Counted from the first letter of the stretch, positions 10,373-57,636 are shown. The stretch: DNA of 64,000 nt from a virus (IMGVR_UViG_3300023202_000205:115365-179364); one strand, 5' to 3'. Program-made: numbers and translations. The notes: generated by a model not told the origin, from the letters alone.

Positions 10373-10408
10373 GTCACAGATACCAAGCCGCTGAACGGGC
10401 ATAGCGAG
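10373..10408 (-). CRISPR. solitary CRISPR repeat (34/36 match to array repeat)
   Basis: gtcacagataccaagccgctgaacgggcatagcgag; no neighbouring repeat. Confidence 0.9.
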
Positions 10409-10516
10409 CCGGCGAGATGGGTAGCGACGGAATCAGCCGTATCAGAGCTCCTCACACCAACTAGGTTGTCCGTAGTCCCGCAGTTTTGGAGCCCCGAGCC
10501 CAAAAACGTAGTCCAG

Positions 10517-10990
10517 CTAACCCCAGTAGCGCTCGAAGCTAGCAAGCTTCCCGAACTTTGGCACTCCTGGCCCTCTCTGCTCTCCGTCTCCTCCTCCATT
10601 GTCTGCTCCTTCTGTGCGCGATTGGATCCACCGAGCATCTATATCCCAGTAGCGGTAAAACGCTGTGCCTCTCGTATGGCCTCGTAGGGGTTTCTCGAAT
10701 TCAGTCTGCCACAGGCAGAGCGACGAGACAATCCATCGAATGGCCTGCCGGACCTGCTTGTTGTCCACCCCTACGTAGTCTATAAGAGAAGGTATGGTAT
10801 GCGGTCCCTGCTGAAGGGCATGGTAGACCACTGGAAAGATCGCCTTGGTGACCAGATACACCCTATGGGTCGCTGGTCGCAGCCCATGTTCACGGATTCT
10901 CGTGAAAAGAGGATCCACGTAGGTCTCAATACGGTCGAGCACCTCCTGTAGCGCATCCTCTGCAAGTTGCTGGTCTGGGTCTGAGTCCAT
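10517..10990 (-). CDS. hypothetical protein, possible winged HTH
   Basis: GGAGG RBS before ATG 10990; TIPSLIDYVGVDNKQVRQAIRW...FYRYW. Confidence 0.5.
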   Translation of the reverse strand: MDSDPDQQLAEDALQEVLDRIETYVDPLFTRIREHGLRPATHRVYLVTKAIFPVVYHALQQGPHTIPSLIDYVGVDNKQVRQAIRWIVSSLCLWQTEFEKPLRGHTRGTAFYRYWDIDARWIQSRTEGADNGGGDGEQRGPGVPKFGKLASFERYWG

Positions 10991-11027
10991 GACTTGCGCC
11001 TCCCGAGCCCAATACTCGTTACTGCCA

Positions 11028-11666
11028 CTACCAATCAAGCTGTTCAAGCTGTTTAACGTAGCAATACTCCATACAGCTAGGCTCCCTATACTCCAGCGGA
11101 GCAGCTTGCTTCACCCGCGTTACAACGTTTATGAGCGACTTTCTCAGGGCAACACCTACGTGTTGCGATGCTATTGATTTTACAATACCCAACGGAAATA
11201 GGTCCATGCTGTGGTTGTCATAGCGGGGACGACAATTATCAACGAAGGGAACGAGGTTCTCAGGCATAGTCCGAAAAAGATCGATCCCGACATCAACGGC
11301 GAGCTGAGTACCAATCCAGCCCCACCCGGGCTCTAACTCCGAATCACTGGGCTGCTCCTCGTAGCCGTACTCCTTGACGATCTCGACCACTTTCTCGGCA
11401 ACCGCCTGAGCTGTGTGGGCTGACGCTTCAGAAGAAGGGATCCGCCGCCGATCGGTGACCAACCAACCGTTTATGGGGACGTCAGACAGCTGGATCTTAT
11501 ATCCTCGGAGAAAGCTGCCACAGCAATCGTCCGAGAAAAGCAGGTTACCCAACCTGCCGGGCTGGTCGGAAAAGAAGTCCTCCACAAAGACTGTGAAATC
11601 GAGATAGGGTAGGCTGATCGATAGATTTCGGACGATGATTCTGTCTTCTTGCGTGTTGGTCTCCAT
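11028..11666 (-). CDS. hypothetical protein
   Basis: 212-aa ORF in operon. Confidence 0.65.
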   Translation of the reverse strand: METNTQEDRIIVRNLSISLPYLDFTVFVEDFFSDQPGRLGNLLFSDDCCGSFLRGYKIQLSDVPINGWLVTDRRRIPSSEASAHTAQAVAEKVVEIVKEYGYEEQPSDSELEPGWGWIGTQLAVDVGIDLFRTMPENLVPFVDNCRPRYDNHSMDLFPLGIVKSIASQHVGVALRKSLINVVTRVKQAAPLEYREPSCMEYCYVKQLEQLDW

Positions 11667-11680
11667 CCGGATCTCCTCTG

Positions 11681-12424
11681 CTAGCTTTTGAGTGATTCGA
11701 GTATTTCCTGTGGTTCTGGGATCGACGAATACTCCTTGGGATACATTTTCGTGTCATAGGCCATAAGTAGCTGTCTGATCTCGTTCGACAAGGCTGCTGG
11801 AGTGTACCCGTGGGTGCCCCCTATGCCTACCTTGCCGAGGTGCCCGCGAGAACCTCTGAAACAGTGCACCGCCAAATACCCCGTCAGTCCTCCTGGGAAA
11901 ATAGACGCCTTTTTAAACAAGACGTGAATCGGGTCACGCATACAAACGTTCACAGAAGCAGCAATGCTACAATACGGATCAGCCAGTAATGCCCACCTGA
12001 GGTTGTTAAAGGGAATGTAGACCACCTCATTTAACCAAGGAACCCAAATGGGAAAGTCTTTCACTTTATCAAAATATACCTTACGTACACTGACTCCCCC
12101 AAGAAACGACAAGTTATTCCGGTCCGGGTGTAGGTACTTTCGGGAATAATCTCTTATAGCCTTCGCTGTAACACCCCTAAAAGGTATGGGTTGTGAGTTT
12201 CCCACGACCAAATCGAATAAGCGATCCCTTGAGGGAGTACCAACTAGCTCTCTGATATAGTCAACAAGGACGTCATTCAGGCCACACACGAGATCGTAAT
12301 AGGTGCTCTGGCTGGTAGATTCCGGAACCACCTCCCCTCGGGACCACGCTCTCCAAGCGTTAATGAACTCCATACCAGTACAGTAGTTGCGCGGTAGTGG
12401 CTGTTTACTGTCACTGCTCAGCAT
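11681..12424 (-). CDS. hypothetical protein, paralogue family member 3
   Basis: YCTGMEFINAWRAWSRGEVVP motif; AAGGAG RBS before ATG 12424. Confidence 0.7.
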   Translation of the reverse strand: MLSSDSKQPLPRNYCTGMEFINAWRAWSRGEVVPESTSQSTYYDLVCGLNDVLVDYIRELVGTPSRDRLFDLVVGNSQPIPFRGVTAKAIRDYSRKYLHPDRNNLSFLGGVSVRKVYFDKVKDFPIWVPWLNEVVYIPFNNLRWALLADPYCSIAASVNVCMRDPIHVLFKKASIFPGGLTGYLAVHCFRGSRGHLGKVGIGGTHGYTPAALSNEIRQLLMAYDTKMYPKEYSSIPEPQEILESLKS

Positions 12425-13130
12425 GGGGAATGAACTCCTTGGTAGAGGGAGTGGGGACTGGAGCGAAGTGCCTTCCCACACGGCTCCCCATTTCGTTCGG
12501 CCATGTCCTCCCAAAAACCGTGTCAAGCAACTCGATGGCAACACAGCGAGCTACTGGGTTGATCAGACTGTCCTCGAAACCAGGTGTTCTGACAAACGTG
12601 CGCCAGCGCTTGAGATGCTGGAACAAATGGATCGACTCGCCCAAGCTCAGGAACCACCCTCGAGATCTCAGGGATCCCGGAAACGGGTTACTTACAACAA
12701 GTACTGCATGCTTGACCACCTGTATACGGGTCCCGTCGAATACGAGCACCCCACAGGTGTTCCTAGTTTCTACACTAAATGAGCCTGCTAAACGCTTGAT
12801 CTGCTCTGGGACTTCCCCCTCAAGAAGGACCTCTATTTCCCCCATCAAGATGCTCACAGATAGTTTATCACGCACACTTCTTGTAAGACCGAACGGAGGC
12901 CTCCCTTCCCAACAAGATCCGAAAGAGTCTACCATGTCACGCCACTCGTAGTTCTTCGCTAGGAATTGACGAAAAAGACGGCAGCTCAGGTCATCGAGCC
13001 ACCTCATATCCCCCTCTCCAGGAATCCTCTCCGAGCTCGTAGGCGTAGGAACTGCCTTCCCCAAGGAATAGCAGCGCCACGCTCTTATGAATTCTGTAGG
13101 TGATGTGTAATCACTCTGTCGTGGTATCAT
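12411..13130 (-). CDS. hypothetical protein, paralogue family member 2
   Basis: YTSPTEFIRAWRCYSLGKAVP motif. Confidence 0.7.
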   Translation of the reverse strand: MIPRQSDYTSPTEFIRAWRCYSLGKAVPTPTSSERIPGEGDMRWLDDLSCRLFRQFLAKNYEWRDMVDSFGSCWEGRPPFGLTRSVRDKLSVSILMGEIEVLLEGEVPEQIKRLAGSFSVETRNTCGVLVFDGTRIQVVKHAVLVVSNPFPGSLRSRGWFLSLGESIHLFQHLKRWRTFVRTPGFEDSLINPVARCVAIELLDTVFGRTWPNEMGSRVGRHFAPVPTPSTKEFIPHAEQ

Positions 13131-13141
13131 GAGACCTCCTG

Positions 13142-14011
13142 CTACGTTTTGTAAAGCGCGCCCAGCTCAGATCCAAGCTCCCCTGGCCAGTAAGTCTCCC
13201 CGTAAATGCGATCCAAGATCTGTACAGCTAACCCACGAGCCACCCAGGTATCCGGGGTCACCCAGCCAGGGGTCTGGGTATCAATTTCTGAATCCGAATC
13301 CATAGCAAGCGTCAGTCTCTGAAGATAGAGAGGTAAGTTTACCCGTGCTAGTTCTATAAAGTAGCAGTCCGCGCAGTCACTACATCTCTCATGTGCTATC
13401 TCGAAGAAAGCAGCTCCATCAGGGAGGGGCGGCACCTCTACTACAGTTCTTATGGAAACCAACGGCATCGTTGGGCGACCCGCTACCCGTGACGTTAAAT
13501 TGAATAGCTGACATTTATCGTCGAATACCCTCACATGCCGGTCATCAAAAGAGACCTCTCTTATCGGAATACGGAAAGGGTAAGGGTCAAGCACGGGACA
13601 TTCACAGACGTCGTCTATCAGGGCGCGAATCTCCTCGTTGATATCCGGAGCGGTTGCTGAATTGTTAAGCAGGTCTTTGACTCTGCTGGTAAACCTGGCC
13701 TCAACAAACATCCGTTTATCGAGTGGTATTTCAACGATCTCCTCTATTCCCTCTCTGTGTATGAACCCCCCACCTGCGTACTCAACAGATTCTATGAATT
13801 CCTTTTCAAGGTTTGGTAGGAACTCATTTTCATAAAAGTGTCGAAAACGAGTAGGTGATTCGAAACGTAGGGGGGCGTGCATCTCCCTGTCATATTCCAT
13901 CACTGGCGGGAAAGTTGGCTGAGGGACTTCCTGACCAAGAGAGTATTTCCTCCAAGCACTGATGAACTCCATGGGAGTCTTGTAATGGGTTAGTTGTGGT
14001 TTTTCGGTCAT
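13142..14011 (-). CDS. hypothetical protein, paralogue family member 1
   Basis: YKTPMEFISAWRKYSLGQEVP motif. Confidence 0.7.
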   Translation of the reverse strand: MTEKPQLTHYKTPMEFISAWRKYSLGQEVPQPTFPPVMEYDREMHAPLRFESPTRFRHFYENEFLPNLEKEFIESVEYAGGGFIHREGIEEIVEIPLDKRMFVEARFTSRVKDLLNNSATAPDINEEIRALIDDVCECPVLDPYPFRIPIREVSFDDRHVRVFDDKCQLFNLTSRVAGRPTMPLVSIRTVVEVPPLPDGAAFFEIAHERCSDCADCYFIELARVNLPLYLQRLTLAMDSDSEIDTQTPGWVTPDTWVARGLAVQILDRIYGETYWPGELGSELGALYKT

Positions 14012-14048
14012 TGATCAGCTTCCTTACTAAGTCAGTAAGATAGTCTTC

Positions 14049-14109
14049 GTCGCAGATACCAAGCCTCTAATCGGGCATAGCGAGAGGGCTCTTATAACTC
14101 GGCCAAGGG
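14049..14109 (-). CRISPR. solitary CRISPR repeat (33/36, 14049..14084) with leader-proximal segment
   Basis: gtcgcagataccaagcctctaatcgggcatagcgag followed by agggctcttataactcggccaaggg (21/25 match to array-2 leader). Confidence 0.92.
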
Positions 14110-14112
14110 TTC

Positions 14113-14340
14113 CATCAGTCGCTCTATTAGAGCAGTAGAATAGCTCTACCAGGGGCTTCATCGGCTACTCTATTAAAGTAGTAATACGCCTTTACCAGGG
14201 GTCTCGTCAACTATCTTATTAAGGTAGTAAGACAAGCTCCAGGTGGTATGCCAGCCCCCTCTATTAGAGCAGTAAGACGGCTTTCCAGGAGTTACATCTG
14301 TTACTCTGCTAAAGTAATAGGATTACATCACCAGTATTAC
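14113..14340. repeat. five degenerate direct repeats, 45-46-bp period (iteron-like)
   Basis: core ctctattagagcagta at 14122, 14168, 14214, 14259, 14304, each followed by ccag. Confidence 0.8.
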
Positions 14341-14373
14341 GTAAACACGAGAAAGGAACCCACTAATATAGTT

Positions 14374-14518
14374 CGGGAATGTATAATTCTGCTTTTTAGC
14401 GAGAGTACTACGTAAGGAGCTTTTTTCGTATTATCAGTTTAATAGCTATTATACTATTAAAACCAACAAAAGCTCCTTACGAAGTACTCTAGCTAAAAAG
14501 CAGAATTATACATTCCCG
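14374..14518. repeat. large AT-rich inverted repeat, 51-bp arms
   Basis: 14374..14424 vs reverse complement of 14468..14518: 2 mismatches; inner tttaatag/ctattaaa stem. Confidence 0.92.
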
Positions 14519-14579
14519 TAAATGAGTTGGAGATTCACGATAAAACTGGTCCTGAGACCATGAGAATCGCCTGATACCT

Positions 14580-14697
14580 GGAAATCCCCTGGTGACTTCA
14601 CTACCTGTTTACCCGTGAATGGGATTTCCTGCCTCACTGAGAGACTTTCTTGGTGACAGAGGGTACTGGGAGGGGGTCATCAATAAAAGTCTCTCAG
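14580..14697. other. two nested hairpins, possible structured RNA
   Basis: ggaaatccc/gggatttcc with inner ttcac/gtgaa; ctgagagacttt/aaagtctctcag with inner ttggtgac/gtcatcaa. Confidence 0.4.
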
Positions 14698-14729
14698 ATT
14701 GGAAAAATCGAGTAGGATAGTAGGTCCTG

Positions 14730-14948
14730 CTACCCCGACCCGTCTGAACCGAATACCTTGCGGTAGATCCGGTCCAGGCGGTTCAGCTGGCTCTCCACGA
14801 ACCGGTGGTCCCGTCGCTTGTCCATCTCATCGATGAAGCTGATCTCACGATCCTGGAGTTGGAACTCCTCTGAAGAGAGATCGAGCAATGCATCGAGTTG
14901 GTCACGTTGTCGATCGTCAAGCGGTACACGTTTGGGAAGCACTGCCAC
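14730..14948 (-). CDS. small hypothetical protein
   Basis: 72 aa, GGAG RBS, operator upstream. Confidence 0.55.
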   Translation of the reverse strand: MAVLPKRVPLDDRQRDQLDALLDLSSEEFQLQDREISFIDEMDKRRDHRFVESQLNRLDRIYRKVFGSDGSG

Positions 14949-14972
14949 GCTGGGTCTCCTGGTGCAAACTTT

Positions 14973-14988
14973 GTGTTCGCGTGAACAC
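14973..14988. promoter_or_regulatory. palindromic operator GTGTTC-GCGT-GAACAC
   Basis: 25 nt upstream of start 14948. Confidence 0.7.
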
Positions 14989-15139
14989 TATTGAGGCGAT
15001 TGTTGTTCCTTGGCTTCTTCGGCAGCTTCGTACCAACCCTCTTTCCAATTCTTGGCACGATGTTGATCATCTGTGTGAGGGCACGAAGTAATCGACTGCC
15101 CTGCCTTGAAAGCTCGATAACCATTATTCAAGTCCTCGT

Positions 15140-15973
15140 TTATGCCGTATTTTTCCATGACTCACTTCCTCCTATCTTATTAGAATCACACGTGAAGGGG
15201 CTTTTCCACGAGTCCTCTATAAAAGCGTGTTTGAGTGCTCTCATGTCTTCCTCGTTGGAGAGATGGTGTTGGATGCTTTTACAGCTCTGTAGAAGACTGT
15301 TCGAGGCATCTTCGAACACCTCGCGGCTGAAGGTACCGTAAAGCGTACAGTATGGTGGGCACTTCTCGACGAGCAAGAGACCCGCTTGTTCACAATCCCC
15401 CAGCAACGCGGCCAAAACAGCCGACTGATTCCACTTTGCCCGCCAAACAGCGTGGCTGATCGGGTCACTGTTGTACAGCTTGTCGACCGCTTTGAGAATC
15501 ACAGAAGTCTTTCCTGGCACTACAATTGGGACATTTTCTCTCAGTTCGATCCGATCGATGCCGTCGCTCTCCGGCCAGATTTCCGAGGCATTCTTGGCTA
15601 GCGGTGCCGAATCGGTTTTGGACTCGGTGTGAAGCTGCTGGATCGTCTTGTTCTCTTTGATCGACTCGACCATGGCCGCCGCTTTATGGTAGTCGCTCAT
15701 GAGCACTGGAATCTTGTGTAGCTTGTCCGCCTCTTTCTTGCCCTCGGTCCAATCTTTCGTTCGGCGACTGGAGGTATCGATGAAGTGGAATGCTGCGTTG
15801 AGCACCGTATGCTCGGCTTGAAAGCACAACATGAGTAGGTCGTTGAACAGTTGACTGGAGCTGGGTGCTGGCGCGTCCATCTCACCGGTCATCATCAGGC
15901 AAAAATGATAAGGGTGGTTATACCAATCCCTTAGGTGACGGCTGCCTAGAGAGATCACTGGTTGGTCATTCAT
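15140..15973 (-). CDS. hypothetical protein
   Basis: 277-aa ORF. Confidence 0.7.
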   Translation of the reverse strand: MNDQPVISLGSRHLRDWYNHPYHFCLMMTGEMDAPAPSSSQLFNDLLMLCFQAEHTVLNAAFHFIDTSSRRTKDWTEGKKEADKLHKIPVLMSDYHKAAAMVESIKENKTIQQLHTESKTDSAPLAKNASEIWPESDGIDRIELRENVPIVVPGKTSVILKAVDKLYNSDPISHAVWRAKWNQSAVLAALLGDCEQAGLLLVEKCPPYCTLYGTFSREVFEDASNSLLQSCKSIQHHLSNEEDMRALKHAFIEDSWKSPFTCDSNKIGGSESWKNTA

Positions 15974-16271
15974 CTGGTATCTCGATTTCTGTCTGTGGGT
16001 CTCCGTCGAGGTCGGTAAGTGCTTTAATCAGATCCATGATGGGCACTGAGTAAAGCTCTCCTCCTCGCTCAACAGATTCCATGTATTTGACGCGTTCATC
16101 CCGGATCTGGTTGGCCATCTCCGGGTAGTCTTTCACGAGTTCATCCTCTGCTTCCGCCATATGGCCGATAGCGATCCAGGCGTGTTCTGGGTATCCTCTG
16201 GGTACCTCAGACATCAACACCAACGCCTGAGCTAAATGCTTGCGACCACATGACGTACAGCTGGGCCTCAT
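15966..16271 (-). CDS. hypothetical protein
   Basis: MRPSCTSCGRKHLAQA...; overlaps next gene by 8 nt. Confidence 0.6.
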   Translation of the reverse strand: MRPSCTSCGRKHLAQALVLMSEVPRGYPEHAWIAIGHMAEAEDELVKDYPEMANQIRDERVKYMESVERGGELYSVPIMDLIKALTDLDGDPQTEIEIPDE

Positions 16272-16300
16272 GAATAGATCCTTTCGGTCTCGGAGGTGCA

Positions 16301-16825
16301 TTACTTGCTGTTATTGGTTTTCGATACAGCGGTAGAGACAGCCCTATTGGTCCCAGCCGATGCCTGCCTATCTGACTGCCCACCCGTTGTGTTGGGGACC
16401 GACGGTAACGCCTTGTCCTGGTCCTTCTTCTTCTGCTCTTGCTCCTTCGTCTTCACAGCCGCCGACTGCTCCTCAAAAGCCTGCTTGGCCACCTCGAGAA
16501 CTACCTGCACATCCCGTGATGCCGTCTGATCACTCGCGGTACACTGAGCCATCTGGAGGCTATTAAGCAAGCCCTCCAAAAGCTCGTAAGGCGCGTCAGT
16601 CAGGTAGACGCAAGGGTTGGCACGTTTTTCGTTCTGGGACGTCGCCTTCTGGGCACGAGCCAGCTCAGCCTTGGTATAGCCGACCAGGTCGATGAGGGGC
16701 TGGGGGTTCTCGGAAGGAGTGTAGGCGTCGACGTGCACCGTTAGGGTCAGGACAAAGTGCTTTGCGTCAATACTCATGACGCGTGTGCACTCTTCCATTT
16801 GGATACTCGTGATGTGATCTTCCAT
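16301..16825 (-). CDS. hypothetical protein
   Basis: 174 aa, GAGG RBS. Confidence 0.65.
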   Translation of the reverse strand: MEDHITSIQMEECTRVMSIDAKHFVLTLTVHVDAYTPSENPQPLIDLVGYTKAELARAQKATSQNEKRANPCVYLTDAPYELLEGLLNSLQMAQCTASDQTASRDVQVVLEVAKQAFEEQSAAVKTKEQEQKKKDQDKALPSVPNTTGGQSDRQASAGTNRAVSTAVSKTNNSK

Positions 16826-16837
16826 GGTTTCCTCATG

Positions 16838-16862
16838 AAAAAAACCACCTGATATCAGGTGG
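16838..16862 (-). terminator. intrinsic terminator
   Basis: perfect palindrome ccacctgatatcaggtgg with A7 tract (U7 on minus strand) after stop of 16893..18104. Confidence 0.7.
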
Positions 16863-16892
16863 CTTGTAGTGGTTCATTTGGTCAGGAATTGA

Positions 16893-18104: not shown

Positions 18105-18162
18105 GTGGTCCCTCTGCTGATGCTGAACATTAGCTCAGATAGTGTGTTACGCAAGATGCCCC

Positions 18163-19157: not shown

Positions 19158-19198
19158 ACACGTCTCCTTATTTGACGTAAGAATTGAAGATGGCTAAG

Positions 19199-20829: not shown

Positions 20830-21358
20830 ACTCCAAGAGTGTCAGGATGGTGACGCTGCGGTCACCAGGATACTGGGTGTAGTCACATTCAAAGTTGTTT
20901 GGTCGATCATCCTCAATGACCCCCTGCTCGATCAAGCAGTCGATAAGGGGTTTGGTTCCACCGACCATGTTGGCGAAGTCCATCTCCCTATTGGGGTGTT
21001 TGTAGATGCGTTCGACACTCCACCTCGACCAAGGCAGGTAGAGTCCTCTGTAAGCGCGGAAACGAAGTCCTACTCTCTCAAGCCAGTCCTTTTTGTCAGA
21101 CCGGTAACGGGACCAATGACTGTAAGTTGAACTGTTCTGACTCCTAACGAGGCGATCGAAACAGACAGTTAGAGGCAGCCCTGGCTTCTCTTTGGGCTTA
21201 GCAAAGCTAGTCGCCTTCTTTTTACGTCCCTTGCTTTTGGCGGAGCAGCAACGCTGGATAGCCCTGGTCAGCGCCTTCAAAGATGACTGACCATGCTGCG
21301 CTCCACATGTAGGGCACGCGGCACTCAGCGTGTGAGTGTTTTCAACAGATGTTCCCAT
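20804..21358 (-). CDS. rusA: RusA-like Holliday junction resolvase
   Basis: DFAN....KPLIDCL...GVIEDD acidic signature. Confidence 0.7.
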   Translation of the reverse strand: MGTSVENTHTLSAACPTCGAQHGQSSLKALTRAIQRCCSAKSKGRKKKATSFAKPKEKPGLPLTVCFDRLVRSQNSSTYSHWSRYRSDKKDWLERVGLRFRAYRGLYLPWSRWSVERIYKHPNREMDFANMVGGTKPLIDCLIEQGVIEDDRPNNFECDYTQYPGDRSVTILTLLEYADERPPP

Positions 21359-24946: not shown

Positions 24947-24947
24947 G

Positions 24948-35395: not shown

Positions 35396-36930
35396 TACCG
35401 TACCTCAACTTGAAATCCATTCTTCCTATAGACTCTTAGACGCTGCACAGACCTATACTGTAGGTTCTTGCTGAACTTGTCCATGAAATCAATGAGGAGC
35501 CCCTGCAGCTTGGAAGTCTTGTCACCTAAGCGAGATAGACGACCAGGTACCTGCCCAGAGTCCAGTGGGCTCCCAGTACCGTCAGCTCGGACAAGTACTG
35601 CTAGGTCCCGGAAGTCGACCCCTTTCGACCAGATCTTGGTAGCGATGGCACGCTTGAGCTCATGGGTCTCGAACGCTTTACGATACGCTTCTCGCATCTT
35701 CTTAGTACAGGGCTCCTGTTCCGGTGTCATAGCCCCTCTTTTCCGCATAGCAGTTATACGGGCTGGGGAAGGCTCCCCTGTAACAATCGGGAACTCAGGA
35801 AGTAGTTGCCCTAGGGCATACGCATGCTCCGTCTTATCTACCATGACCAGTAGTTGTTGGTCGTCGCCGATCTCTTCCTCCACCTTACGTACCGTGTACG
35901 CTATGAGGCGGTTACGATAATCGTTTAGCCAAAGACCTAGCCGGTCAGCATCGGCCGTATTCCTCATGCCAGCCACATCGGGACCGGCCGAAGACGTAAT
36001 CATCCTTACCTGCAGCTGAACAATGTTGCCGCCGGCCACGCCTTCTTGGTAGGTTACGTCAGCTATTTGCTGTCCGAAGACCGCTTCACCAAACCCCTCA
36101 GCTTTATCACTCCTGCCCTCCGGGGTAGCAGTAAACCCGAAAATACGTGCACGACGGAACTTGTTGAACTTCTTGACGTAGTTCTCTGTCATTAGCGTGT
36201 GGCATTCATCCGCCAGTATGAGGTTCACGTCCTTGGGAGCCTTATGAAGCGACTGAGAAGTACACACAGTAACTCGACGAGTATAGCTTTTGCCCGCACC
36301 AATCCGGCCTAGCTGGCTGCCCAGATCGTACTTGAGATCATCGTAGATGTTAGAAGCAATATCGTTGGAGTTGACTGTAATCAGGATTTCTGCGCGGGGA
36401 TAGACCTTAGCTAACAGCTTGACTAGGAAGGTCTTACCCCACCCAGTAGGGCACACGACAATCCCACCCCGGTGTGCTAGCAGTTTGGAAAACACTTCCT
36501 TCTGCCGCGACCTCCAACTGACTCCTTCGATCTGAGATAAGTCAGGCTTCCCCAGACCGTCGTCTACAAAGTCCTCCACTGTTACTTGATACCCGTACTT
36601 ATTCAAGTCAGCTAAGATACGTGGGCCATATCCTGCTAACGCACAGAAAGCAGCAGTGTCCCCTTCCTCCGTATACCAGAATAGGGGTATTTTACTGATA
36701 TTACGTGTACGCACTGGGTATGTAGAACCAGTAGCTACGTCTTCCACCCACTCAGTATCCACTGAATGCCGCGATACAGTACAAACCTCTTCGTAAAACT
36801 CGCCCAGTTCGCTGGGGAAGAGGGCAAGAGCGCGCCCCAGGTATCTTAGCTTAGCTATCATTTCGAGTAAGACTCCATCGCTAACAAGTTGAAGACAGTA
36901 TGGCGATCTGTCGGCAACTCTCGCAGCCAC
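35395..36930 (-). CDS. superfamily 2 (UvsW-like) helicase
   Basis: CPTGWGKT, ILADECH, GFTATP, KGVDF, Q..GR..R. Confidence 0.9.
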   Translation of the reverse strand: MAARVADRSPYCLQLVSDGVLLEMIAKLRYLGRALALFPSELGEFYEEVCTVSRHSVDTEWVEDVATGSTYPVRTRNISKIPLFWYTEEGDTAAFCALAGYGPRILADLNKYGYQVTVEDFVDDGLGKPDLSQIEGVSWRSRQKEVFSKLLAHRGGIVVCPTGWGKTFLVKLLAKVYPRAEILITVNSNDIASNIYDDLKYDLGSQLGRIGAGKSYTRRVTVCTSQSLHKAPKDVNLILADECHTLMTENYVKKFNKFRRARIFGFTATPEGRSDKAEGFGEAVFGQQIADVTYQEGVAGGNIVQLQVRMITSSAGPDVAGMRNTADADRLGLWLNDYRNRLIAYTVRKVEEEIGDDQQLLVMVDKTEHAYALGQLLPEFPIVTGEPSPARITAMRKRGAMTPEQEPCTKKMREAYRKAFETHELKRAIATKIWSKGVDFRDLAVLVRADGTGSPLDSGQVPGRLSRLGDKTSKLQGLLIDFMDKFSKNLQYRSVQRLRVYRKNGFQVEVR

Positions 36931-49586: not shown

Positions 49587-49689
49587 GGAGCCTCCTATGT
49601 GTGTCTATTTTTGCATAATTTATACATCCTGTCACAGATATGTTATTCAGTCGGTAGCCGATACCCGGCCTCTATCAGTCAGTCAGTCA

Positions 49690-50273
49690 GCCACAAATAC
49701 CAAGCCTCTGAGCGGGCATAGCGAGAGTGCGCAGCTTCCCGCTTCTCCCCGATCACATCCGGGTCACAGATACCAAGCCTCTGAGCGGGCATAGCGAGAG
49801 GAGGTCTGGCCGGCTTTACCGCGAGATCGTGGTGACGTCACAGATACCAAGCCTCTGAGCGGGCATAGCGGGAGACGCCCTGCATGTTGCTCGTCACAGA
49901 TACCAAGCCTCTGAGCGGGCATAGCGAGTATCAGCGGTTCATAGGCTGATTCCCGTGATGGCGAGTCACAGATACCAAGCCTCTGAGCGGGCATAGCGAG
50001 CGGCGGTAACCTACGCTGGCGTCACAGATACCAAGCCTCTGAGCGGGCATAGCGAGAACAGGATACTGTAGACGACCTCTTTCGTCACCGCTCGGGTCAC
50101 AGATACCAAGCCTCTGAGCGGGCATAGCGAGAAACTGCGGCCGGTGCTGGCAAATGCCCATCCTGTGTCACAGATACCAAGCCTCTGAGCGGGCATAGCG
50201 AGTCCCACCACGCCCGGCAGACCGAGTGCACGCATGCGTCACAGATACCAAGCCTCTGAGCGGGCATAGCGAG
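49690..50273 (-). CRISPR. CRISPR array 1: 9 repeats, 8 spacers
   Basis: 36-bp repeat CTCGCTATGCCCGCTCAGAGGCTTGGTATCTGTGAC (minus) at 49690 (degenerate), 49763, 49837, 49893, 49965, 50021, 50096, 50167, 50238; spacers 37,38,20,36,20,39,35,35. Confidence 0.98.
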
Positions 50274-50445
50274 AGGGCCTTTATAATTCGGTTCATGGAA
50301 CCGTGTTATATCGCTATCCGCGAGAGCCCTCATCTCAGCTGATCCTAGCACCCTTTAGATCACTGCAATATCTCCACCTAAACCATTATCATCAAAGAAC
50401 ATCGAGTGCCTCCCGTAATTTCAGAACCAAGAAGGCGCTCGAAAC
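50274..50445 (-). promoter_or_regulatory. CRISPR leader 1 (172 bp)
   Basis: noncoding, abuts repeat, about 94 percent identical to 57465..57636. Confidence 0.9.
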
Positions 50446-50448
50446 TAC

Positions 50449-51090: not shown

Positions 51091-51100
51091 CTCATTCTCC

Positions 51101-52981
51101 TTAGGTGGTAACCTTTTCTGACTTCTTAGACTTCTTGGACTTCTTCGATTTCTTGGACTTCTTGGACTTCTTAGCCTTTTTAGCTTTCTTAGGCTCCTTC
51201 TTCTCTTCCGTACCGTTACTTTTCTTACTTTTTCGAACTTCCCCCTTGCTACGGGCAGCAGAGATGTCCACGCTATCCGTCAGCTGAGTACGGAGCATAA
51301 GTCTCAGCATTTTGCCAGTATTACGACGTTTGATAAACTCGTCAAAATCTTTCTGAGAGAGAAATCGTCGTAACAGGTTCAGCACACGGCTGTAATCCCC
51401 GCTCACCCCACAATCGCAGGGCCTCTCCTTAGTACAGTTGCCGCAGGTTTTTGCGATACCGCAAGGATTGACTTCTACGCAGGTCATAGCCTTTTTAAGT
51501 GTTTCCTCGAGATACGACACCGCCGCCAACCTCCTGTATTGGTCAGATGCCTCATCTCCGGGAGACTTACGCTCCTTGGTTCTGGAATCAGCATACCTGG
51601 CGAAGTCTGTCCAGTGGATATCGGGTATCACCACTGTGTCGTAAGTCCTCGACAACTTGGCCGCGAACTTGCGGTAGAGATCCAAGCGGTGCTCTTGAAT
51701 GTGTAACCGCTGGTTAGACGCATATTCCAGTAAGTGTTTGTCCTGAACCCTCCACTTCTCAGCTGTCACATACGCATGCTTGTCCCCTTTCCATCTGTTG
51801 TCCTTCCACTTCCAGATGACGGCTGCCAGCTGAGCTTCCGACCTCCAGTGGAAAATGGACTTCGTTGCTTCTTGGATCCACTCGGGGCCCTTGCGGAAGA
51901 ACTTGTCGAGTCGTTTACAGGTTTTATTGAACTCTTTGCGCCTGATGGATTGGAGATCTTCTTCATTATCTTTGAAGTTGATGTACTTATTCTCAAGTAG
52001 GAGATGCCCGAAATCACCATCTTCTCCAGCATAGGTTGCGACCCGTATACCGTCGTCCTGAACGGCCCACCCAGGCATTACAGCAACAACTCCGTGTCCT
52101 TTCTCCCGCTTTTCCAAAGCAGACCAGTCGTCGGTAGATAGGACCAGCTGAAGACTCCACTTCAGATTAGTACCCACCTTCTTTCCAACCAGTCGAGCAT
52201 ATTTGACCTGAGCACCGCGCGGGACGTCACGGTGAAGCTTGGTACGGAAGTTCAACCAAACGGGCTCTTTACCCACACTCCCGATCCGTATCCGGCTCAT
52301 ACGCCAACGGTCCCCACTGGTGGGGCACCTTTCGTCGTTTACTTGCAGGAGTCGGCTGATCCGCTTACCGCTACCATCGAAAGCGTCGTAGAAGTTACCC
52401 CCGTTCTGTACCTGTACGGTGATGCTGTCCTCACCGCGATAACGAACGAACTCGGGGGGAGCTCCCGATTTGTCATCTACGCGAGATTGTGAAATCGCGT
52501 TCTTGAGATGCCAGAACAGGCTGCTTTCGTTATAAAGAGCCTTACACTTTTGCCTGAACTCATCCTCGAGCTTACTCTGACACTTCTCCCATTTCTTGGT
52601 AGGGTAGCACTTCTTCTTTTTGAATTCACTGAGTTTCCTATACTTACCATTTCTGAGCTGTTTGGCTTTCTTGATCTGCTCCTTAAGGAGCTTGTCGATC
52701 TCACGCGTCCTCAGTTTGGCACGCTGCTTTCTGGAAAGATCGATGAGGCTATCAACCTCTTTTTCGGCTTCCTCAACGTCTTTTAAGAGGGGGATGATAG
52801 CTGGAAATAGTTGGCGAAGCTTGTCATGGATAGCCGTCCTCCGCTCTCTTTCGATAGCTACAAGACTATTCCTGTAATGGTTCATTTCTCGGAAGATAGC
52901 TATCGCTTCCTCCTCATCTTCTTTAAACAACTTAGCCCCGAATTTATAAACCTTCGAAGGCTTGCTATCTCGCCCAAACAT
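51101..52981 (-). CDS. cas12m: type V-M (V-U1) CRISPR effector Cas12m-like, RuvC-inactivated, Lys-rich C-terminal tail
   Basis: MFG....VYKFG start, RNSLVAIE, LFW, F.RYRG..SITVQ, RIRIGS....PVW...LHR.VP, W.S..QLA...WK, R.DLYR.FAA; RuvC-I VAVMPGW (D to M), RuvC-II VVIPD, RuvC-III GDY...NL; flanked by arrays. Confidence 0.88.
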   Translation of the reverse strand: MFGRDSKPSKVYKFGAKLFKEDEEEAIAIFREMNHYRNSLVAIERERRTAIHDKLRQLFPAIIPLLKDVEEAEKEVDSLIDLSRKQRAKLRTREIDKLLKEQIKKAKQLRNGKYRKLSEFKKKKCYPTKKWEKCQSKLEDEFRQKCKALYNESSLFWHLKNAISQSRVDDKSGAPPEFVRYRGEDSITVQVQNGGNFYDAFDGSGKRISRLLQVNDERCPTSGDRWRMSRIRIGSVGKEPVWLNFRTKLHRDVPRGAQVKYARLVGKKVGTNLKWSLQLVLSTDDWSALEKREKGHGVVAVMPGWAVQDDGIRVATYAGEDGDFGHLLLENKYINFKDNEEDLQSIRRKEFNKTCKRLDKFFRKGPEWIQEATKSIFHWRSEAQLAAVIWKWKDNRWKGDKHAYVTAEKWRVQDKHLLEYASNQRLHIQEHRLDLYRKFAAKLSRTYDTVVIPDIHWTDFARYADSRTKERKSPGDEASDQYRRLAAVSYLEETLKKAMTCVEVNPCGIAKTCGNCTKERPCDCGVSGDYSRVLNLLRRFLSQKDFDEFIKRRNTGKMLRLMLRTQLTDSVDISAARSKGEVRKSKKSNGTEEKKEPKKAKKAKKSKKSKKSKKSKKSKKSEKVTT

Positions 52982-53070
52982 GTTAACTCCTTGGTTGTTA
53001 TTGCTGATTGTGGTTTCATTATCTGGTTGGTCGGTACGACCCCGAACTGGATGCCGTCGTCAACAGATAC

Positions 53071-53106
53071 GTCGCAGATACCAAGCCTCTGAGCGGGCAT
53101 AGCAAG
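53071..53106 (-). CRISPR. solitary CRISPR repeat (34/36) upstream of cas12m
   Basis: gtcgcagataccaagcctctgagcgggcatagcaag, 89 nt before cas12m ATG; partial copy gtcaacagatac at 53059..53070. Confidence 0.92.
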
Positions 53107-53120
53107 GCCACCTGGCCATC

Positions 53121-53153
53121 AAAATAGGGGACGCTGTACCTAACGTCCCCTAT
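53121..53153 (-). terminator. intrinsic terminator
   Basis: ataggggacg-(10 nt)-cgtcccctat stem with U tract on minus strand, after stop of 53173 ORF. Confidence 0.7.
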
Positions 53154-53172
53154 CCCTATCTACTCATCAAAG

Positions 53173-53412
53173 CTAACGGCGGCGCAAATCAAACTGCTCA
53201 AGTACTTCAAGCACGACAAGCGCCACCACCTGCAGCAAACCGGCCCATACCCAGACACGAGTGACATCGGTCACGAAAGTGCGGAATAACGGCCATGAGA
53301 TCATGAGAGTCTCGAAGAGAGCCAAGACGAGTACGATCACGATAACGTAGTACAAGACAGCACCACTACGGGTACTGGCGCTGCTTGCCTTCTTTTCCTT
53401 CGAGGGAGGCAT
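53173..53412 (-). CDS. small two-TM membrane protein
   Basis: two hydrophobic segments; GAGGA RBS. Confidence 0.55.
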   Translation of the reverse strand: MPPSKEKKASSASTRSGAVLYYVIVIVLVLALFETLMISWPLFRTFVTDVTRVWVWAGLLQVVALVVLEVLEQFDLRRR

Positions 53413-53499
53413 GAGGCCTTTCCTCACAGCTCATGAAACCGACGGCACCAGCTGAGCATGGTTTGCATCCGACGGGTGTGGCCGTGACGCCACCAGACT

Positions 53500-53515
53500 G
53501 TGTTCGCGTGAACAC
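53500..53515. promoter_or_regulatory. palindromic operator GTGTTC-GCGT-GAACAC
   Basis: intergenic, upstream of 53173..53412 and the cas12m region. Confidence 0.72.
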
Positions 53516-53549
53516 AATCCTTTATCATGAGCTACGTATGCACTAGCGG

Positions 53550-54773
53550 TCAGGTATCCTCACCTGATTTGACGAGGATACGGTTGACCCACTTGAGCTG
53601 GGTATCCTTGCGGCCCTTCCCAACCCGATAGCGGTGCCAATGAGGCCTCCGCCAATGCACGCGGGGAGAGGCGTGGCTGCCCTCCCCGTCTTCTCGTTCG
53701 AGACGTGTATAACTACGCCCCAACATATTGGGTGTCCAAATCTCGATAGACTGCTCGCGCTTCTTCTTTTTTCCGGGTATCTTCTTTCCCTTACGTGTCT
53801 TACATAGACTAGCCTCCTCGAAATCCTCAGGGCATGCCATGAAAAACAGCCCGATATTGAAAACCAGGCTGGTTACCCGACAGATCATCTGATCCTCCGA
53901 CTCACTGAGTTCCCCTGCCTGGACGTGCTCAACCTCCATGAACTCAGCGATCGATTGATCCTGTTTTGGCCCCTCTGACCGGTAATAGCAGGGACCCTCG
54001 GTAACGACGTGTATGCAGAAGATGTTGTCCCTGCGAATATCCAGGAGCCTGTGGGCGTCCTCCTCGGGAAGCTGGGGAGCTTGCACGATGTGTTCCTGGT
54101 CTTCAAACTCCTTGGGAGTCGTTGTCTGAACGAAGACATAGGTCACATCAAACCCCTCAGCCGTCTTTAAAAGGCCTTTCGGAATGGCAACTGTCCAGAA
54201 CGGATAGGGCCAGCGTACTTCCCCGTAGACCACCTCTTGCGGGGGCTCCGTCGATAACAGCGCTATCAGGAGTTCGCTGGTCAGGGATACCATGGGTTGG
54301 TAGTCGTGAAGCCATTGAAGGAAGAACTCATGGATTCGACGGGTCGCCTCTCCCTCTTCCTCTTCCAACCCCAGCATGTAAAGGAGGTTAGTGTAGGATT
54401 CCACCTGACAGCGGTTCAGGAGGTCCTCGTAGGGGTGGTACGCCTTGGGCATTTGGTAAAGGACTCTCTCGCTCTTCTGCCGGTAGTCCCTGATCGTCTT
54501 CTCAACATTTTGAGTACCATTACGCACCTGCTCCTTAGTGACCTTCCCTATGGACAACTCATATTCGAGCTGCTCACGAACCCGCTTTCTCAGAGTGACC
54601 AGCGCTTTCTCCGCGGTAATTTCCAGGGCTTTCCATGGCTGCTTGGAAAGCTCCTCCTGGAGTAACTGCTCGTACTCGTACTTAAGCGCCTTTTTCTCGA
54701 GTGGACTCATGTGCTGCAGGGCCTCAAGGAGCTGTTCGTCCATTTCCCCGGGTAGGTGATGCTGTTGATTCAT
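53550..54773 (-). CDS. hypothetical protein with C-terminal SPR.HWRR.HW...G.G...KWV motif
   Basis: 407 aa. Confidence 0.7.
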   Translation of the reverse strand: MNQQHHLPGEMDEQLLEALQHMSPLEKKALKYEYEQLLQEELSKQPWKALEITAEKALVTLRKRVREQLEYELSIGKVTKEQVRNGTQNVEKTIRDYRQKSERVLYQMPKAYHPYEDLLNRCQVESYTNLLYMLGLEEEEGEATRRIHEFFLQWLHDYQPMVSLTSELLIALLSTEPPQEVVYGEVRWPYPFWTVAIPKGLLKTAEGFDVTYVFVQTTTPKEFEDQEHIVQAPQLPEEDAHRLLDIRRDNIFCIHVVTEGPCYYRSEGPKQDQSIAEFMEVEHVQAGELSESEDQMICRVTSLVFNIGLFFMACPEDFEEASLCKTRKGKKIPGKKKKREQSIEIWTPNMLGRSYTRLEREDGEGSHASPRVHWRRPHWHRYRVGKGRKDTQLKWVNRILVKSGEDT

Positions 54774-54808
54774 GTTGCGTAACTCCTTGTGGTACGTAGT
54801 CTTCTGGC

Positions 54809-56611
54809 ATGGCGGTCGCGGCTCCTACGAAGCTGGAAGAGACACTCAAGGAAGTGCGAAACCGGGCCGTCAAAAATGGTGCTTCGCTTGCTCCAGCACT
54901 TCCCCTCATACTCCAACTGAGGGGGCAGCCCTACTCACTGAACTGGTCTCACTTCATGTTTGAGCCCATGTTCAAGTTTATAGGTATGCCTCGTCGAATG
55001 ATGTTGCTTTGTGGCCGCCAGGTCTCCAAAAGCACCTCGATGGCAGCTAGTCAGATACTCCGGGCAGCTATCCAGCCCAACTACAACATCCTTACCGTAA
55101 TGCCGCTTTACGAGCAGGTTCGCAAATTCAGCCAAAACTATGTGCGCCCTTTCATAACGACGAGTGGGGTAAGGAATCGTCTGGTCAGTGAACTGGGAAC
55201 GGACTCGGTCCTTCAACGGCAGATAGGGCCACTACAACACAACAGTTCCTTGTTCTACAGCTACAGTTCTGGCGACCCCAACCGTGTCCGTGGTATCCCT
55301 GCAGACGAAACCGACTTTGACGAGATCCAGGATTTGGACCACGCTGACCTCCCGATCATTGAATCGTGTATGGGTGCTTCGCGGTTCAAGATTGTTCGAC
55401 TAACGGGAACCCCTAAGACGTTTGACAACACGGCCAACCTGCTCTGGGAAGATAGCTCCCAGGCACATTGGCACATCCCCTGTTGTTGTGGCAAAGAGAA
55501 TAAAGCTGCCGTTGATGGTGATCTAATTCAGATGATCGGAGATGGTGGTAAACGACCGGATGGCTCTGTGCGTACACTGATCTGCGCTAACTGTGGCCGA
55601 GACCTCAATAGCCGCATTGGGTATTATGTCCACGACTACCCAGATCGCCGGTCGATCTTTCCCGGCTATCACGCCCCTCAGCCTATCCTCCCCATGCACT
55701 ATGAGTCGCCGCCGGACTGGCATGTCATCTTGGAAACGATGCATGAGAAGGCGACTTACATCTTCTACAACGAGGTCCTCGGAGAGTCCTATGATGCGGG
55801 CTCAAAGGTCATCACCTACGAGGAGCTGCATAAGGCAGCGCAGGTAACACCTTGTGAGCCGAAGGACATGCTGCCTTCTCGGTACATTGCTACTATGGTC
55901 GGGATCGACTGGGGTGGTCGTGGTAAGGAAAAGACGTCCGATACCGACGACTTTATCTCGAACACCGCCTTTGCCGTAGCAGGAATGCGGTCCGACGGTG
56001 TCATAGAGATACCCTGGCTTCACAAAGTACCCTATGTGGTAGATATGAGCCACGAGTCACATATGGCCGTCAACGTAGCTGCTAGCAGTAGGTCGGACTA
56101 CATCGCGATGGATTATGGCGGTCAGGGAAATGTGCAGGAACAGCAAGTGCGTGCCTGGGGATGGCCAGCGGAACGGGTGGTTCCGTTTACTTACGCGGTG
56201 ATGGCGCCAACACGCCCCGTAGTCTACTACAACCCTCCGAAACACCGTGGTGTCCGATCCAGTTATACACTGGATAAGCCCAGGAGTATCTTGCTCCTAG
56301 CAGAGCTCCTTAAGAGAGGGTTAGTGTTACTCCCCAACTCAGATAAATACCTGAAAGACCACCTGCGTGACTTCCTCAACATCTATGAAGAGAGTATCGA
56401 GAACCCCTCCGGCTCACCTCGTCGACTCATCAAACGGATGAGTCGACGCACTGACGACGTCGTCCACGCAATCAATTTTGCCGTAATGGGCCTCTTCCAT
56501 TACACAAATAGCTGGCCTAAGATCGCCGATTCATTTGTCGAGCAGGCCATCTCGCAGATACCTTCTTCTGTCACAGATACCAAGCCTTTGAGCGGGCATA
56601 GCGCGGGATGA
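54809..56611 (+). CDS. terL: terminase large subunit, GpA-like
   Basis: GRQVSKST Walker A, RVRGI.AD...FDEIQD, GTPKT, CCCG/CANC zinc module, FYNEVLGESY, GIDWG nuclease motif. Confidence 0.85.
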   Translation: MAVAAPTKLEETLKEVRNRAVKNGASLAPALPLILQLRGQPYSLNWSHFMFEPMFKFIGMPRRMMLLCGRQVSKSTSMAASQILRAAIQPNYNILTVMPLYEQVRKFSQNYVRPFITTSGVRNRLVSELGTDSVLQRQIGPLQHNSSLFYSYSSGDPNRVRGIPADETDFDEIQDLDHADLPIIESCMGASRFKIVRLTGTPKTFDNTANLLWEDSSQAHWHIPCCCGKENKAAVDGDLIQMIGDGGKRPDGSVRTLICANCGRDLNSRIGYYVHDYPDRRSIFPGYHAPQPILPMHYESPPDWHVILETMHEKATYIFYNEVLGESYDAGSKVITYEELHKAAQVTPCEPKDMLPSRYIATMVGIDWGGRGKEKTSDTDDFISNTAFAVAGMRSDGVIEIPWLHKVPYVVDMSHESHMAVNVAASSRSDYIAMDYGGQGNVQEQQVRAWGWPAERVVPFTYAVMAPTRPVVYYNPPKHRGVRSSYTLDKPRSILLLAELLKRGLVLLPNSDKYLKDHLRDFLNIYEESIENPSGSPRRLIKRMSRRTDDVVHAINFAVMGLFHYTNSWPKIADSFVEQAISQIPSSVTDTKPLSGHSAG

Positions 56612-57464
56612 TGACGGCCCCTCAGTCACAGATACCAAGCCTCTGAGCGGGCATAGCGAGGCGGCCATGACCCCGAGGAACAGCCGTGGCCCTCCGAGTC
56701 ACAGATACCAAGCCTCTGAGCGGGCATAGCGAGCCGATTGCGATGGGGTGGACCCGGTCTCTTTCGAGTTGTCACAGATACCAAGCCTCTGAGCGGGCAT
56801 AGCGGGGGCCTTGCTACCGGGTTTCCCTTCAGACTACCCTTCGGTCACAGATACCAAGCCTCTGAGCGGGCATAGCGAGACCATAGCCACCTCGGCAAGG
56901 CCCTGGATACCGCCGCGTCACAGATACCAAGCCTCTGAGCGGGCATAGCGAGCGCTTTTGGATCGCCTGGCGTACGCCCTGCTTCTGGTCACAGATACCA
57001 AGCCTCTGAGCGGGCATAGCGAGGGCGCTCTCACACAGCGAGGAGCAGAGCCATGGCCACACTGTCACAGATACCAAGCCTCTGAGCGGGCATAGCGAGT
57101 GCCATCGAATCCCCGGTAGCGGACACCGTTCACTTGCGTCACAGATACCAAGCCTCTGAGCGGGCATAGCGAGACAACTGTTGGCGGCGAGCACGACCGG
57201 ATGCCCAGGGTCACAGATACCAAGCCTCTGAGCGGGCATAGCGGGAGCTCGGCCGCCTCGGATTGGGTCAGTAGATGATCATGTCACAGATACCAAGCCT
57301 CTGAGCGGGCATAGCGAGTTCTCGTCGTCGGTACGCTCGCCACGGAGCGCCGCCGTCACAGATACCAAGCCTCTGAGCGGGCATAGCGAGTGCGACACCT
57401 TTCGCGGCACCGTGGCCAGCGAGATCTAGTCACAGATACCAAGCCTCTGAGCGGGCATAGCGAG
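56570..57464 (-). CRISPR. CRISPR array 2: 13 repeats, 12 spacers
   Basis: repeats at 56570 (degenerate), 56625, 56698, 56771, 56844, 56917, 56988, 57064, 57138, 57210, 57283, 57355, 57429; spacers 19,37,37,37,37,35,40,38,36,37,36,38. Confidence 0.98.
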
Positions 57465-57636
57465 AGGGCCTTTATAACTCGGCTCAGGGAACCGTGTTAT
57501 ATCGCTCTCTGCGAGCGCCCTCATCTCAGCTGATCCTAGCACCTCTTAGATCACTGCAATATCTCCATCTAAACCATTATCAGCAAAGAACATCGAGCGC
57601 CTCCCGTAATTTCAGAACCAAGAAGGCGCTCGAAAC
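57465..57636 (-). promoter_or_regulatory. CRISPR leader 2 (172 bp)
   Basis: 11 mismatches to leader 1 by manual alignment. Confidence 0.9.

Follow-up and report, generated by a model that had tools for sequence, protein, structure and literature searches.

The stretch of DNA analysed here, called the window throughout, is 64,000 nucleotides (nt) long and comprises bases 115365-179364 of the 179,364-bp IMG/VR virus record IMGVR_UViG_3300023202_000205, an uncultured phage with an estimated completeness of 96%. The window contains the gene of a Cas12m-like effector of CRISPR systems (cas12m; 626 amino acids (aa), 51101..52981, minus strand) together with two CRISPR arrays and, apart from these arrays, three lone copies of their 36-nt repeat, each of them ahead of a gene of the phage. 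This arrangement suggests that the phage may use its own CRISPR protein to control its own messages. Positions given below are those of the window unless the genome or another contig is named.

Repeat copies were searched with the array consensus at up to 3 mismatches, with 100 shuffles as the null. The window holds 25 matches, all on one strand, where the shuffles gave an expectation of 0. Across the whole genome there are 33 copies, again always on one strand, which make up three arrays and six lone copies. The lone copies of the window are found at 10373-10408 (2 mismatches), 14049-14084 (3) and 53071-53106 (2), and three more lie beyond it at genome positions 36523, 105721 and 111419. None of the six is followed by a terminator; a ribosome-binding site (RBS) and an open reading frame (ORF) stand 14-89 nt downstream of each. 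Measured from the end of the lone copy to the start codon, the distances are 14 nt at 36523, 69 nt at 105721, 26 nt at 111419, 70 nt at 10373, 37 nt at 14049 and 89 nt at 53071. The genes behind the three copies outside the window encode, in the order of their listing, a 274-aa protein of unknown function, a helix-turn-helix (HTH) protein of the HTH_17 family (E=2.8e-10) and a 39-aa ORF product. The first-pass annotation had reported the three window copies with 2-3 mismatches each, in sense orientation and 70, 37 and 89 nt upstream of start codons, and its positions, mismatch counts and distances were all confirmed. Over 9000-15000, DNA contigs assembled from two further samples of this study revealed no differences, and one from a second sample spans the copy at 10373, which is therefore not an artefact of one assembly.

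Judged by its sequence, the effector is a true relative of Cas12m (type V-U1) with a degenerate RuvC triad. It matches PDB entry 23vw (E=2.3e-40), the PADLOC model Cas12u1 (E=9e-71), the latter end to end (positions 3-529 of 533), and the Cas12m2 entry 8hio (E=3.4e-7). In the alignments the Asp of RuvC-I is replaced by Met and the Glu of RuvC-II by Pro, and the third Asp is kept, so that two of the three acidic residues are replaced. The closest relatives in the protein collection are 43% and 39% identical. Characterised Cas12m proteins bind DNA without cutting it, read an 18-bp heteroduplex and use T- or C-rich protospacer-adjacent motifs (PAMs) (PMC10442227, PMC11013384), and Cas12m orthologues do not need RuvC to mature the precursor of CRISPR RNA (pre-crRNA), which they process inside the repeat scaffold or upstream of it (PMC11013384, PMC10442227). 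By analogy, we propose that the phage Cas12m would be unable to cut DNA and would mature its own pre-crRNA.

Several features place the locus beside published type V-M systems, namely the size of the effector (about 600 aa), a repeat of 36 nt with its stem and proposed pseudoknot, a lack of adaptation genes and a degenerate RuvC domain. Cognate arrays of approximately 36-nt repeats with a covariation-supported stem lie next to the effector gene. Six-frame searches of the whole record detected neither Cas1 (PF01867) nor Cas2 (PF09827), with control genomes positive and with Cas4 not searched, and the opposite strand showed no anti-repeat of a trans-activating RNA (tracrRNA) when up to 8 mismatches were allowed over the whole repeat and up to 2 in each half. 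The MmCas12m2, GoCas12m and MsCas12m loci have been described as effector plus array only (PMC10442227, PMC11013384). MvCas12m of myxophage MV-1 was reported in a 2026 preprint as the first phage Cas12m, with no mention of lone repeats (10.64898/2026.09.14.751636); it is reported with an intact D-E-D triad, whereas the protein of this phage reads M-P-D. In phage Rctr197k (KX853510.1; L104, 197 kb), too, a 1.5-kb CRISPR accompanies a Cas12m-like gene that had escaped annotation ('similar to transposase'), and so the preprint's claim of a first phage Cas12m may not hold. Rctr197k has in addition a second transposase-like gene with a small CRISPR of a different repeat, the two loci being at 11968-15433 and 5011-6906.

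The 9-repeat array (49690..50273) lies 830 nt downstream of cas12m and the 13-repeat array (56570..57464) 3.6 kb upstream, and the third array, with 5 repeats, is outside the window at genome 104661-104981; all three are on the minus strand. A conserved leader of approximately 170 nt is common to them, with a TATAAG box 6 nt before every first repeat. In the 9-repeat array it occupies 50274..50448 on the minus strand, starts past a terminator-like hairpin and ends in TATAAAGGCCCT, and in the 13-repeat array it occupies 57465..57641, also on the minus strand. Since each array has a degenerate repeat at its low-coordinate end (at 49690 and at 56570-56605 in the window) and its leader at the high end, their transcribed strand is the minus strand. 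In the 13-repeat array, the degenerate last repeat shares bases with the 3' end of the gene for the terminase large subunit, which runs convergently (54809-56611, plus strand; phrog_675, E=2.5e-49). Spacers are mostly 30-40 nt long, with three short ones of 19-20 nt, two of 20 nt in the 9-repeat array (49873-49892 and 50001-50020) and one of 19 nt in the 13-repeat array (56606-56624); one of 18 nt occurs in G001, another contig with this repeat family, described below. The length of the short spacers equals that of the heteroduplex read by Cas12m.

To describe the fold of the repeat, 96 distinct members of the family were gathered from this phage and other contigs, and 68 of them were aligned. 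A 6-bp stem between columns 14-19 and 29-34 is paired at 95.6% over the 68 repeats, and five of its six pairs have changed on both sides; pair 19-29, for instance, occurs as A-U, G-C, U-A and C-G. The proposed pseudoknot of AUGCC with the loop GGCUU is invariant or nearly so, and for this reason covariation cannot test its pairing and neither supports nor contradicts it. In the repeat of this phage, pair 15-33 is a U-U mismatch.

Changes in the lone copies for the most part avoid the stem and the proposed pseudoknot, and the structural positions are preserved. Together the six carry 15 substitutions, eight of which fall in the 6-nt 5' tail, two at the already mismatched position 33 and two where a G-U pair is kept; two others break stem pairs, one affects the unpaired last base and none touches the pseudoknot. 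The 5' tail is the counterpart of the 5' end that is disordered in the Cas12m2 crRNA (PMC10442227, PMC11013384). With a covariance model of the repeat family the six lone copies score 43.6-52.2 bits, compared with 54.5 bits for perfect array repeats. The same model, run on the whole genome down to E=1, returned nothing beyond the 33 copies, and thus no decayed copies are seen; searches of G001 and of G003, a further genome with the repeat family, left the same gap, with no decayed copies.

Each lone copy of the window has surroundings of its own. The first (10373..10408, minus strand; 44.5 bits) has two changes, C to U at stem position 14, where a G-U pair is kept, and A to C at position 19, which breaks the top pair 19-29. 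The ATG 70 nt after it opens a 45-aa ORF (10165..10302, minus strand) with the look of a small ribbon-helix-helix (RHH) or antitoxin-type DNA-binding protein and weak Pfam matches to DUF7557 (E=1.3e-4) and VapB_antitox (E=3.9e-4), both below the curated cut-offs. This copy also stands in frame within an alternative 157-aa ORF (10638-10165), which we think is spurious because that frame of the repeat has no stop codon.

The second copy (14049..14084, minus strand; 43.6 bits) has three changes: one breaks pair 14-34, one leaves a wobble pair and one is at an already mismatched position. Directly upstream are 18 nt of array leader with a TATAAG box (14085..14102, minus strand), preceded by five tandem 46-nt hairpin units of families D1 and D2 (14103..14334, minus strand), and a sixth, partial unit downstream of the copy at 14015-14040 bears the RBS. 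The repeat and the leader piece form an exact 54-nt block within this tandem of 46-nt period, where the unit spacing of 146 equals 2 x 46 + 54. The ATG at 14011, 37 nt after the copy, belongs to a 289-aa gene, the first of a three-gene paralogue set on the minus strand (13142-14011, 12411-13130 and 11681-12544) with common N- and C-terminal motifs; family searches with the set at 11681-14011 gave no family. The AT-rich 720-bp intergenic region in this part of the window also contains an inverted repeat at 14374-14518, with 51-nt arms that are 96% complementary and 43 nt apart, which could be an origin or a regulatory hairpin. An Rfam search of 9000-15500 returned only below-threshold matches to microRNA precursors, all from this long hairpin.

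The third copy (53071..53106, minus strand; 51.3 bits) lies 89 nt before the cas12m ATG at 52981; of its two changes, one is in the 5' tail and the other at the stem position that is mismatched in any case. A terminator-like hairpin followed by TATTTT (53121..53150, minus strand), read from the sequence and not among the results of the terminator consensus scan, closes the upstream 84-aa gene and ends 14 nt before the copy. The copy is directly followed by the 12-nt stretch GTATCTGTTGAC (53059..53070, minus strand), which contains TTGACG and equals the last 11 nt of the consensus repeat plus one extra T, with no spacer between the two. Consensus scans of this phage for sigma-70 promoters and terminators remained at chance level, and 7-mer enrichment in the intergenic gaps revealed no promoter ahead of the lone repeats. 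A palindromic motif, GTGTTCnCGCGAACAC, occurs on the minus strand at 9612, 14981 and 53508 and at nine or more further sites of the genome. It stands 20-100 nt ahead of start codons and never directly before a lone repeat, and is a candidate phage promoter or operator.

Other viral contigs, with hardly any genes in common with this phage, also contain the repeat family together with Cas12m. The complete genome G003 (175,377 bp, 41% GC) encodes a Cas12m 27% identical to that of this phage, one array and four lone copies. Two of these four lie on the strand opposite the array, and all four are co-oriented with an ORF that starts 4, 11, 21 or 29 nt downstream. Three are placed 8-12 nt past the -10 box of a promoter of the form ATTAATTTGAC-N17-TAnnnT and before the RBS; this promoter class has 41 members in G003, many of them serving leaderless or short-leader genes, cas12m included. 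In the copy at G003:115500, pairs 17-31 and 18-30 have changed on both sides with pairing kept. Seven lone copies occur in G001 (L025; 52.7 kb, high GC); the stem is fully paired in each of them, and in the copy at 14162 pair 19-29 underwent a double change from A-U to G-C. One G001 copy lies 42 nt before cas12m, another 11 nt before an integrase-like gene, and two are in frame inside genes, at 8909-8944 in a DUF3799 exonuclease gene and at 14162-14197 in an HD-domain gene. The 20 nt that follow the copy at 8909-8944 repeat (18/20) the sequence 20-39 nt upstream, in the manner of a target-site duplication around a 55-nt insert. In G004 the order is terminator hairpin, repeat, 34 nt and ATG. 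Finally, in the 5.3-kb metagenome contig L036 a partial repeat is followed by a 39-nt spacer and then by a full repeat, whose end is approximately 19 nt before cas12m. In three lineages, with Cas12m proteins no more than about 25-26% identical to that of this phage, cas12m is preceded by a lone repeat. Loose repeat patterns were also run against public collections; their single matches were mostly chance, in coding DNA, and were discarded.

We give an even chance to the reading that the lone repeats are cis-acting Cas12m handles in the leaders of phage mRNAs. Three observations favour an action in cis on RNA: the orientation of the lone copies always follows the downstream gene, the G003 copies sit between promoter and RBS, and the place of a guide is taken, both here and in G003, by the RBS and start codon of the gene itself. 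Under this reading, leader-first-repeat junctions would have been copied into intergenic sites, so that 5' leaders came to bear the 6-bp stem and the proposed pseudoknot that Cas12m would bind. The messages with such a handle would be those of the HTH regulator, the small RHH-like protein, the three-gene paralogue set, two unknown genes and cas12m itself. Cas12m would bind these leaders, cut just upstream of the handle and hold the next 18-20 nt or so in place of a guide. Where the RBS and start codon are in or beside the held stretch, as at the copies with distances of 14, 26 and 37 nt, translation would be blocked or the message destabilised, and at cas12m the outcome would be negative autoregulation in competition with array crRNAs for the protein. 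We infer the binding, the cleavage and the direction of the effect on expression from sequence. The fuller proposal, in which the nuclease-dead Cas12m acts as a sequence-specific RNA-binding regulator of a handle regulon that includes cas12m, cuts or occludes in cis and is competed for by crRNAs, is put forward more tentatively and falls somewhat short of an even chance.

Regarding the origin of the lone copies, about 62 nt of array leader are kept at genome 105721 and the 18 nt with the TATAAG box at 14049; as two copies still bear array-leader sequence, the lone copies arose by copying of the leader-first-repeat junction. A TGACTGAC-type motif occurs both in the trailer of the 9-repeat array and behind the copy at 105721. 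All of this would also fit young by-products without function, made when recombination or slippage copied the junction or when arrays collapsed to one repeat, and left as recent survivors between genes. The clean 54-nt insertion into the hairpin tandem at 14049 and a divergence from the consensus of just 1-5 bases would be expected on such an account, and so would the gene layout. About 94% of the genome is coding and, by crude gene calls, approximately 82% of the genes are on the minus strand, so a surviving intergenic, co-oriented element is almost bound to precede a start codon. The earlier point that the lone repeats lie on the coding strand before start codons is accordingly true, but nearly automatic in this genome taken alone. 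The account is weakened by what is missing and by what recurs. No decayed copies were found in any of the three genomes, orientation in G003 tracks the downstream gene even where the copy is inverted relative to the array, and three G003 copies fall exactly in the gap from the -10 box to the RBS. Moreover, compensatory double changes occurred within lone copies, and a lone repeat stands ahead of cas12m in three distant lineages, the layout recurring in unrelated phages. We regard functionless by-products as unlikely, although for any single copy here, given how young the copies are, they have to be reckoned with.

Another possibility is that the lone repeats act in trans, like CreR or other crRNA-like RNAs (crlRNAs), a mode of action proven with CreR for Cas12a (10.1101/2023.03.10.532045). 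A repeat with the following 20 nt or so would then guide Cas12m as a roadblock to a partly complementary, PAM-flanked site of the phage, with autorepression of cas12m among the outcomes. The pseudo-guides and the 24 array spacers were compared with the whole genome by blastn-short, by local alignment with shuffles and by seed-anchored scans, and gave nothing beyond chance; no pseudo-guide had a significant match in its own gene, in the upstream region or in the rest of the genome, and the spacers had 38 matches of at least 14/18 against a null mean of 47. A match of 18/19 between positions 17-35 of the 53071 pseudo-spacer and genome 25778 was rejected, being outside the guide window and intragenic. 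The 12 nt after 53071 do echo the last 11 nt of the repeat, which TTG precedes in every repeat, but the match is just 8 nt long when ungapped. In four cases, furthermore, the supposed guide is the RBS and start of the downstream gene.

More favourable to guides in trans are two of the other contigs. The spacer of the L036 mini-array (from 479, reverse complement) matches 29/34 with one gap, antisense, within that contig's own cas12m (target 857-892), scoring 19 where the maximum of 200 shuffles was 14.5, and the TTTG flank of the site fits the 5'-TTN PAM of characterised Cas12m. L036 therefore looks like a CreR-type autorepression circuit for Cas12m. In G001 the 12 nt that come first behind the cas12m-proximal repeat exactly reproduce a site 53-65 nt upstream, although the flank of this match is GTG and not TTN, which is the PAM of characterised Cas12m and may not be that of the orthologue in this phage. 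Taken together, these cases make autoregulation of cas12m by way of a nearby repeat look like a common theme with more than one route to it. For the lone repeats of this phage as a whole, guides of the CreR type are decidedly unlikely in our estimate. The first-pass annotation had proposed that Cas12m regulates the phage's own genes, either at the mRNA leaders or through partially matched guides. Structurally kept lone repeats and a layout that recurs in unrelated phages speak for such regulation, whereas the guide variant is unsupported here, as neither pseudo-guides nor array spacers have a significant self-target in this phage.

The guide position can also be read with the target in another phage. 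An inserted repeat would turn the first 20 nt or so of a gene into a guide, the copy in the phage itself would lack a PAM, and co-infecting relatives without the insertion would be silenced. This fits the fact that the supposed guides are the phage's own 5' gene sequence, with the repeat end GAC replacing the prior flank, and it would account for the in-frame G001 copies in the exonuclease and HD-domain genes, where placement is not limited to leaders. However, the insertion-free flanks in G003 are AGT, AAT, TAA and TGT rather than TTN (again the PAM of characterised Cas12m, which may not be that of the G003 orthologue), and the copy ahead of cas12m is explained no better than by autoregulation. 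We rate silencing of relatives by self-derived guides as very unlikely.

Solitary repeat units of viruses are known to act as RNA anti-CRISPRs (Racr; PMC10651486), and the lone repeats might likewise be decoys that soak up the Cas12m of a host or a competitor, or the phage's own as a buffer, leaving the downstream genes unaffected. The G001 copy at 21343 is followed by a terminator-like hairpin, as a free-standing small RNA would be. In this phage, by contrast, the copies lead into an RBS and a gene and not into terminators, their orientation is always that of the downstream gene, and the cognate effector and three arrays of the same repeat belong to the phage itself. Decoys have, in our view, hardly any chance of being the explanation.

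Several points weigh against the cis-acting handles favoured here. Folding of the single sequence misses the covariation-supported stem in the repeat of this phage, which has the internal U-U mismatch, and two lone copies have each lost a further pair (19-29 at 10373 and 14-34 at 14049). With differences of only 1-5 bases from the array consensus and leader remnants in two of them, the copies could be young duplications, and an intergenic sense position before a gene carries little weight in this genome alone, as noted above. Three of the six are 69-89 nt from the start codon, too far for simple occlusion of the RBS. The copies at 36523 and 53071 directly follow terminator-like hairpins and, having no recognisable promoter of their own, may be poorly transcribed. 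No close relatives of this phage turned up, either in a megablast of 20 kb against GenBank phages or when IMG/VR was scanned with peptide patterns of Cas12m and of the 289-aa gene. Lone repeats were also missing within 8-12 kb around cas12m at plasmid loci with arrays (Allomeiothermus silvanus, Pelobacter propionicus and Methylomonas koyamae) and around the Cas12m-like gene of phage Rctr197k, so the feature is not general to type V-M.

Some further observations concern Cas12m loci of other elements and the rest of the window. Downstream of the Cas12m gene of contig L359 (G005; 1688-3022), in a sequence that recurs unchanged in G006, there are approximately 28 repeat-like units with a period of about 48 nt, each with a conserved core of about 30 nt and a variable part of 16-20 nt. 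The units are strongly divergent, nearly all with a paired stem, and by their sequence this is a compact, old-looking array with very short spacers. On two plasmids, of Caballeronia and Paraburkholderia (L106 and L107), a Cas12m-like gene lies about 270-290 bp upstream of repA, with no array within 1.3 kb downstream of it; these may represent an array-less Cas12m tied to plasmid replication control. Within the window, a tandem repeat of 24-nt period extends over about 1.6 kb (3822-5460) inside a 908-aa ORF of the minus strand, and the other tandems are a perfect 93-nt duplication (7923-8108) and a 60-nt repeat with 3.5 copies (63741-63949).

Among known systems, the closest likeness is to type V-A, where lone repeats upstream of cas12a are common (10.1101/2023.03.03.530964, Shmakov et al.) and CreR-guided autorepression of Cas12a has been proven (10.1101/2023.03.10.532045, Liu et al.). 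As there, a cognate repeat with its handle part intact lies just upstream of the gene of a single-protein type V effector, and the proposed autoregulation would compete with array crRNAs. The 53071 copy shares with CreR and CreA mini-arrays the position of a repeat beside a cas gene with the handle conserved; in place of the second, closing repeat there is just the 11-nt copy of the repeat 3' end, without a spacer. The differences are that the effector is Cas12m and phage-encoded, that lone copies also head five non-CRISPR genes and that a partly complementary target, present in L036, was not found in this phage. In addition, the repeat is in cis in the gene's own leader, which makes an RNA-level mechanism as likely as DNA targeting.

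Viral repeats themselves are represented by Racr (PMC10651486) and by the crRNA-like Cracr RNAs, which hijack host Cas proteins (10.1101/2024.10.29.618823). Like them, the lone copies are isolated repeats scattered through a viral genome; they resemble a CRISPR repeat and would be expected to bind a Cas protein. Racr and Cracr RNAs act on host Cas proteins and come from free-standing small RNA genes, whereas here Cas12m and the arrays are viral and the repeats precede an RBS and a gene.

Engineered Cas6/Csy4 or Cas12a repeats in mRNAs serve as processing and insulation signals. In the same way, the cognate Cas protein of this phage would cut the leader, stay at the new 5' end and uncouple the gene from upstream RNA; the engineered leader repeats are synthetic, whereas the arrangement here is natural, recurrent and viral. 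A limited literature search brought up no description of the repeats of a virus-encoded effector heading the virus's own genes.

The known regulatory CRISPR repeats (tracr-L, scaRNA, CreA/CreR, crlRNAs, Racr and Cracr) are all trans-acting small RNAs, nearly all of which serve or attack cellular CRISPR systems. In this case the effector belongs to the virus itself, which seems to have built the effector's handle into the leaders of viral genes. That the layout recurs in unrelated phages takes it beyond a curiosity of one genome. If the reading is right, a DNA-binding Cas12 protein would also be an RNA-binding regulator, tools that process and insulate mRNAs by means of repeats and a compact protein of about 600 aa would have a forerunner in nature, and the CRISPR module would be a circuit of viral gene expression rather than of defence.

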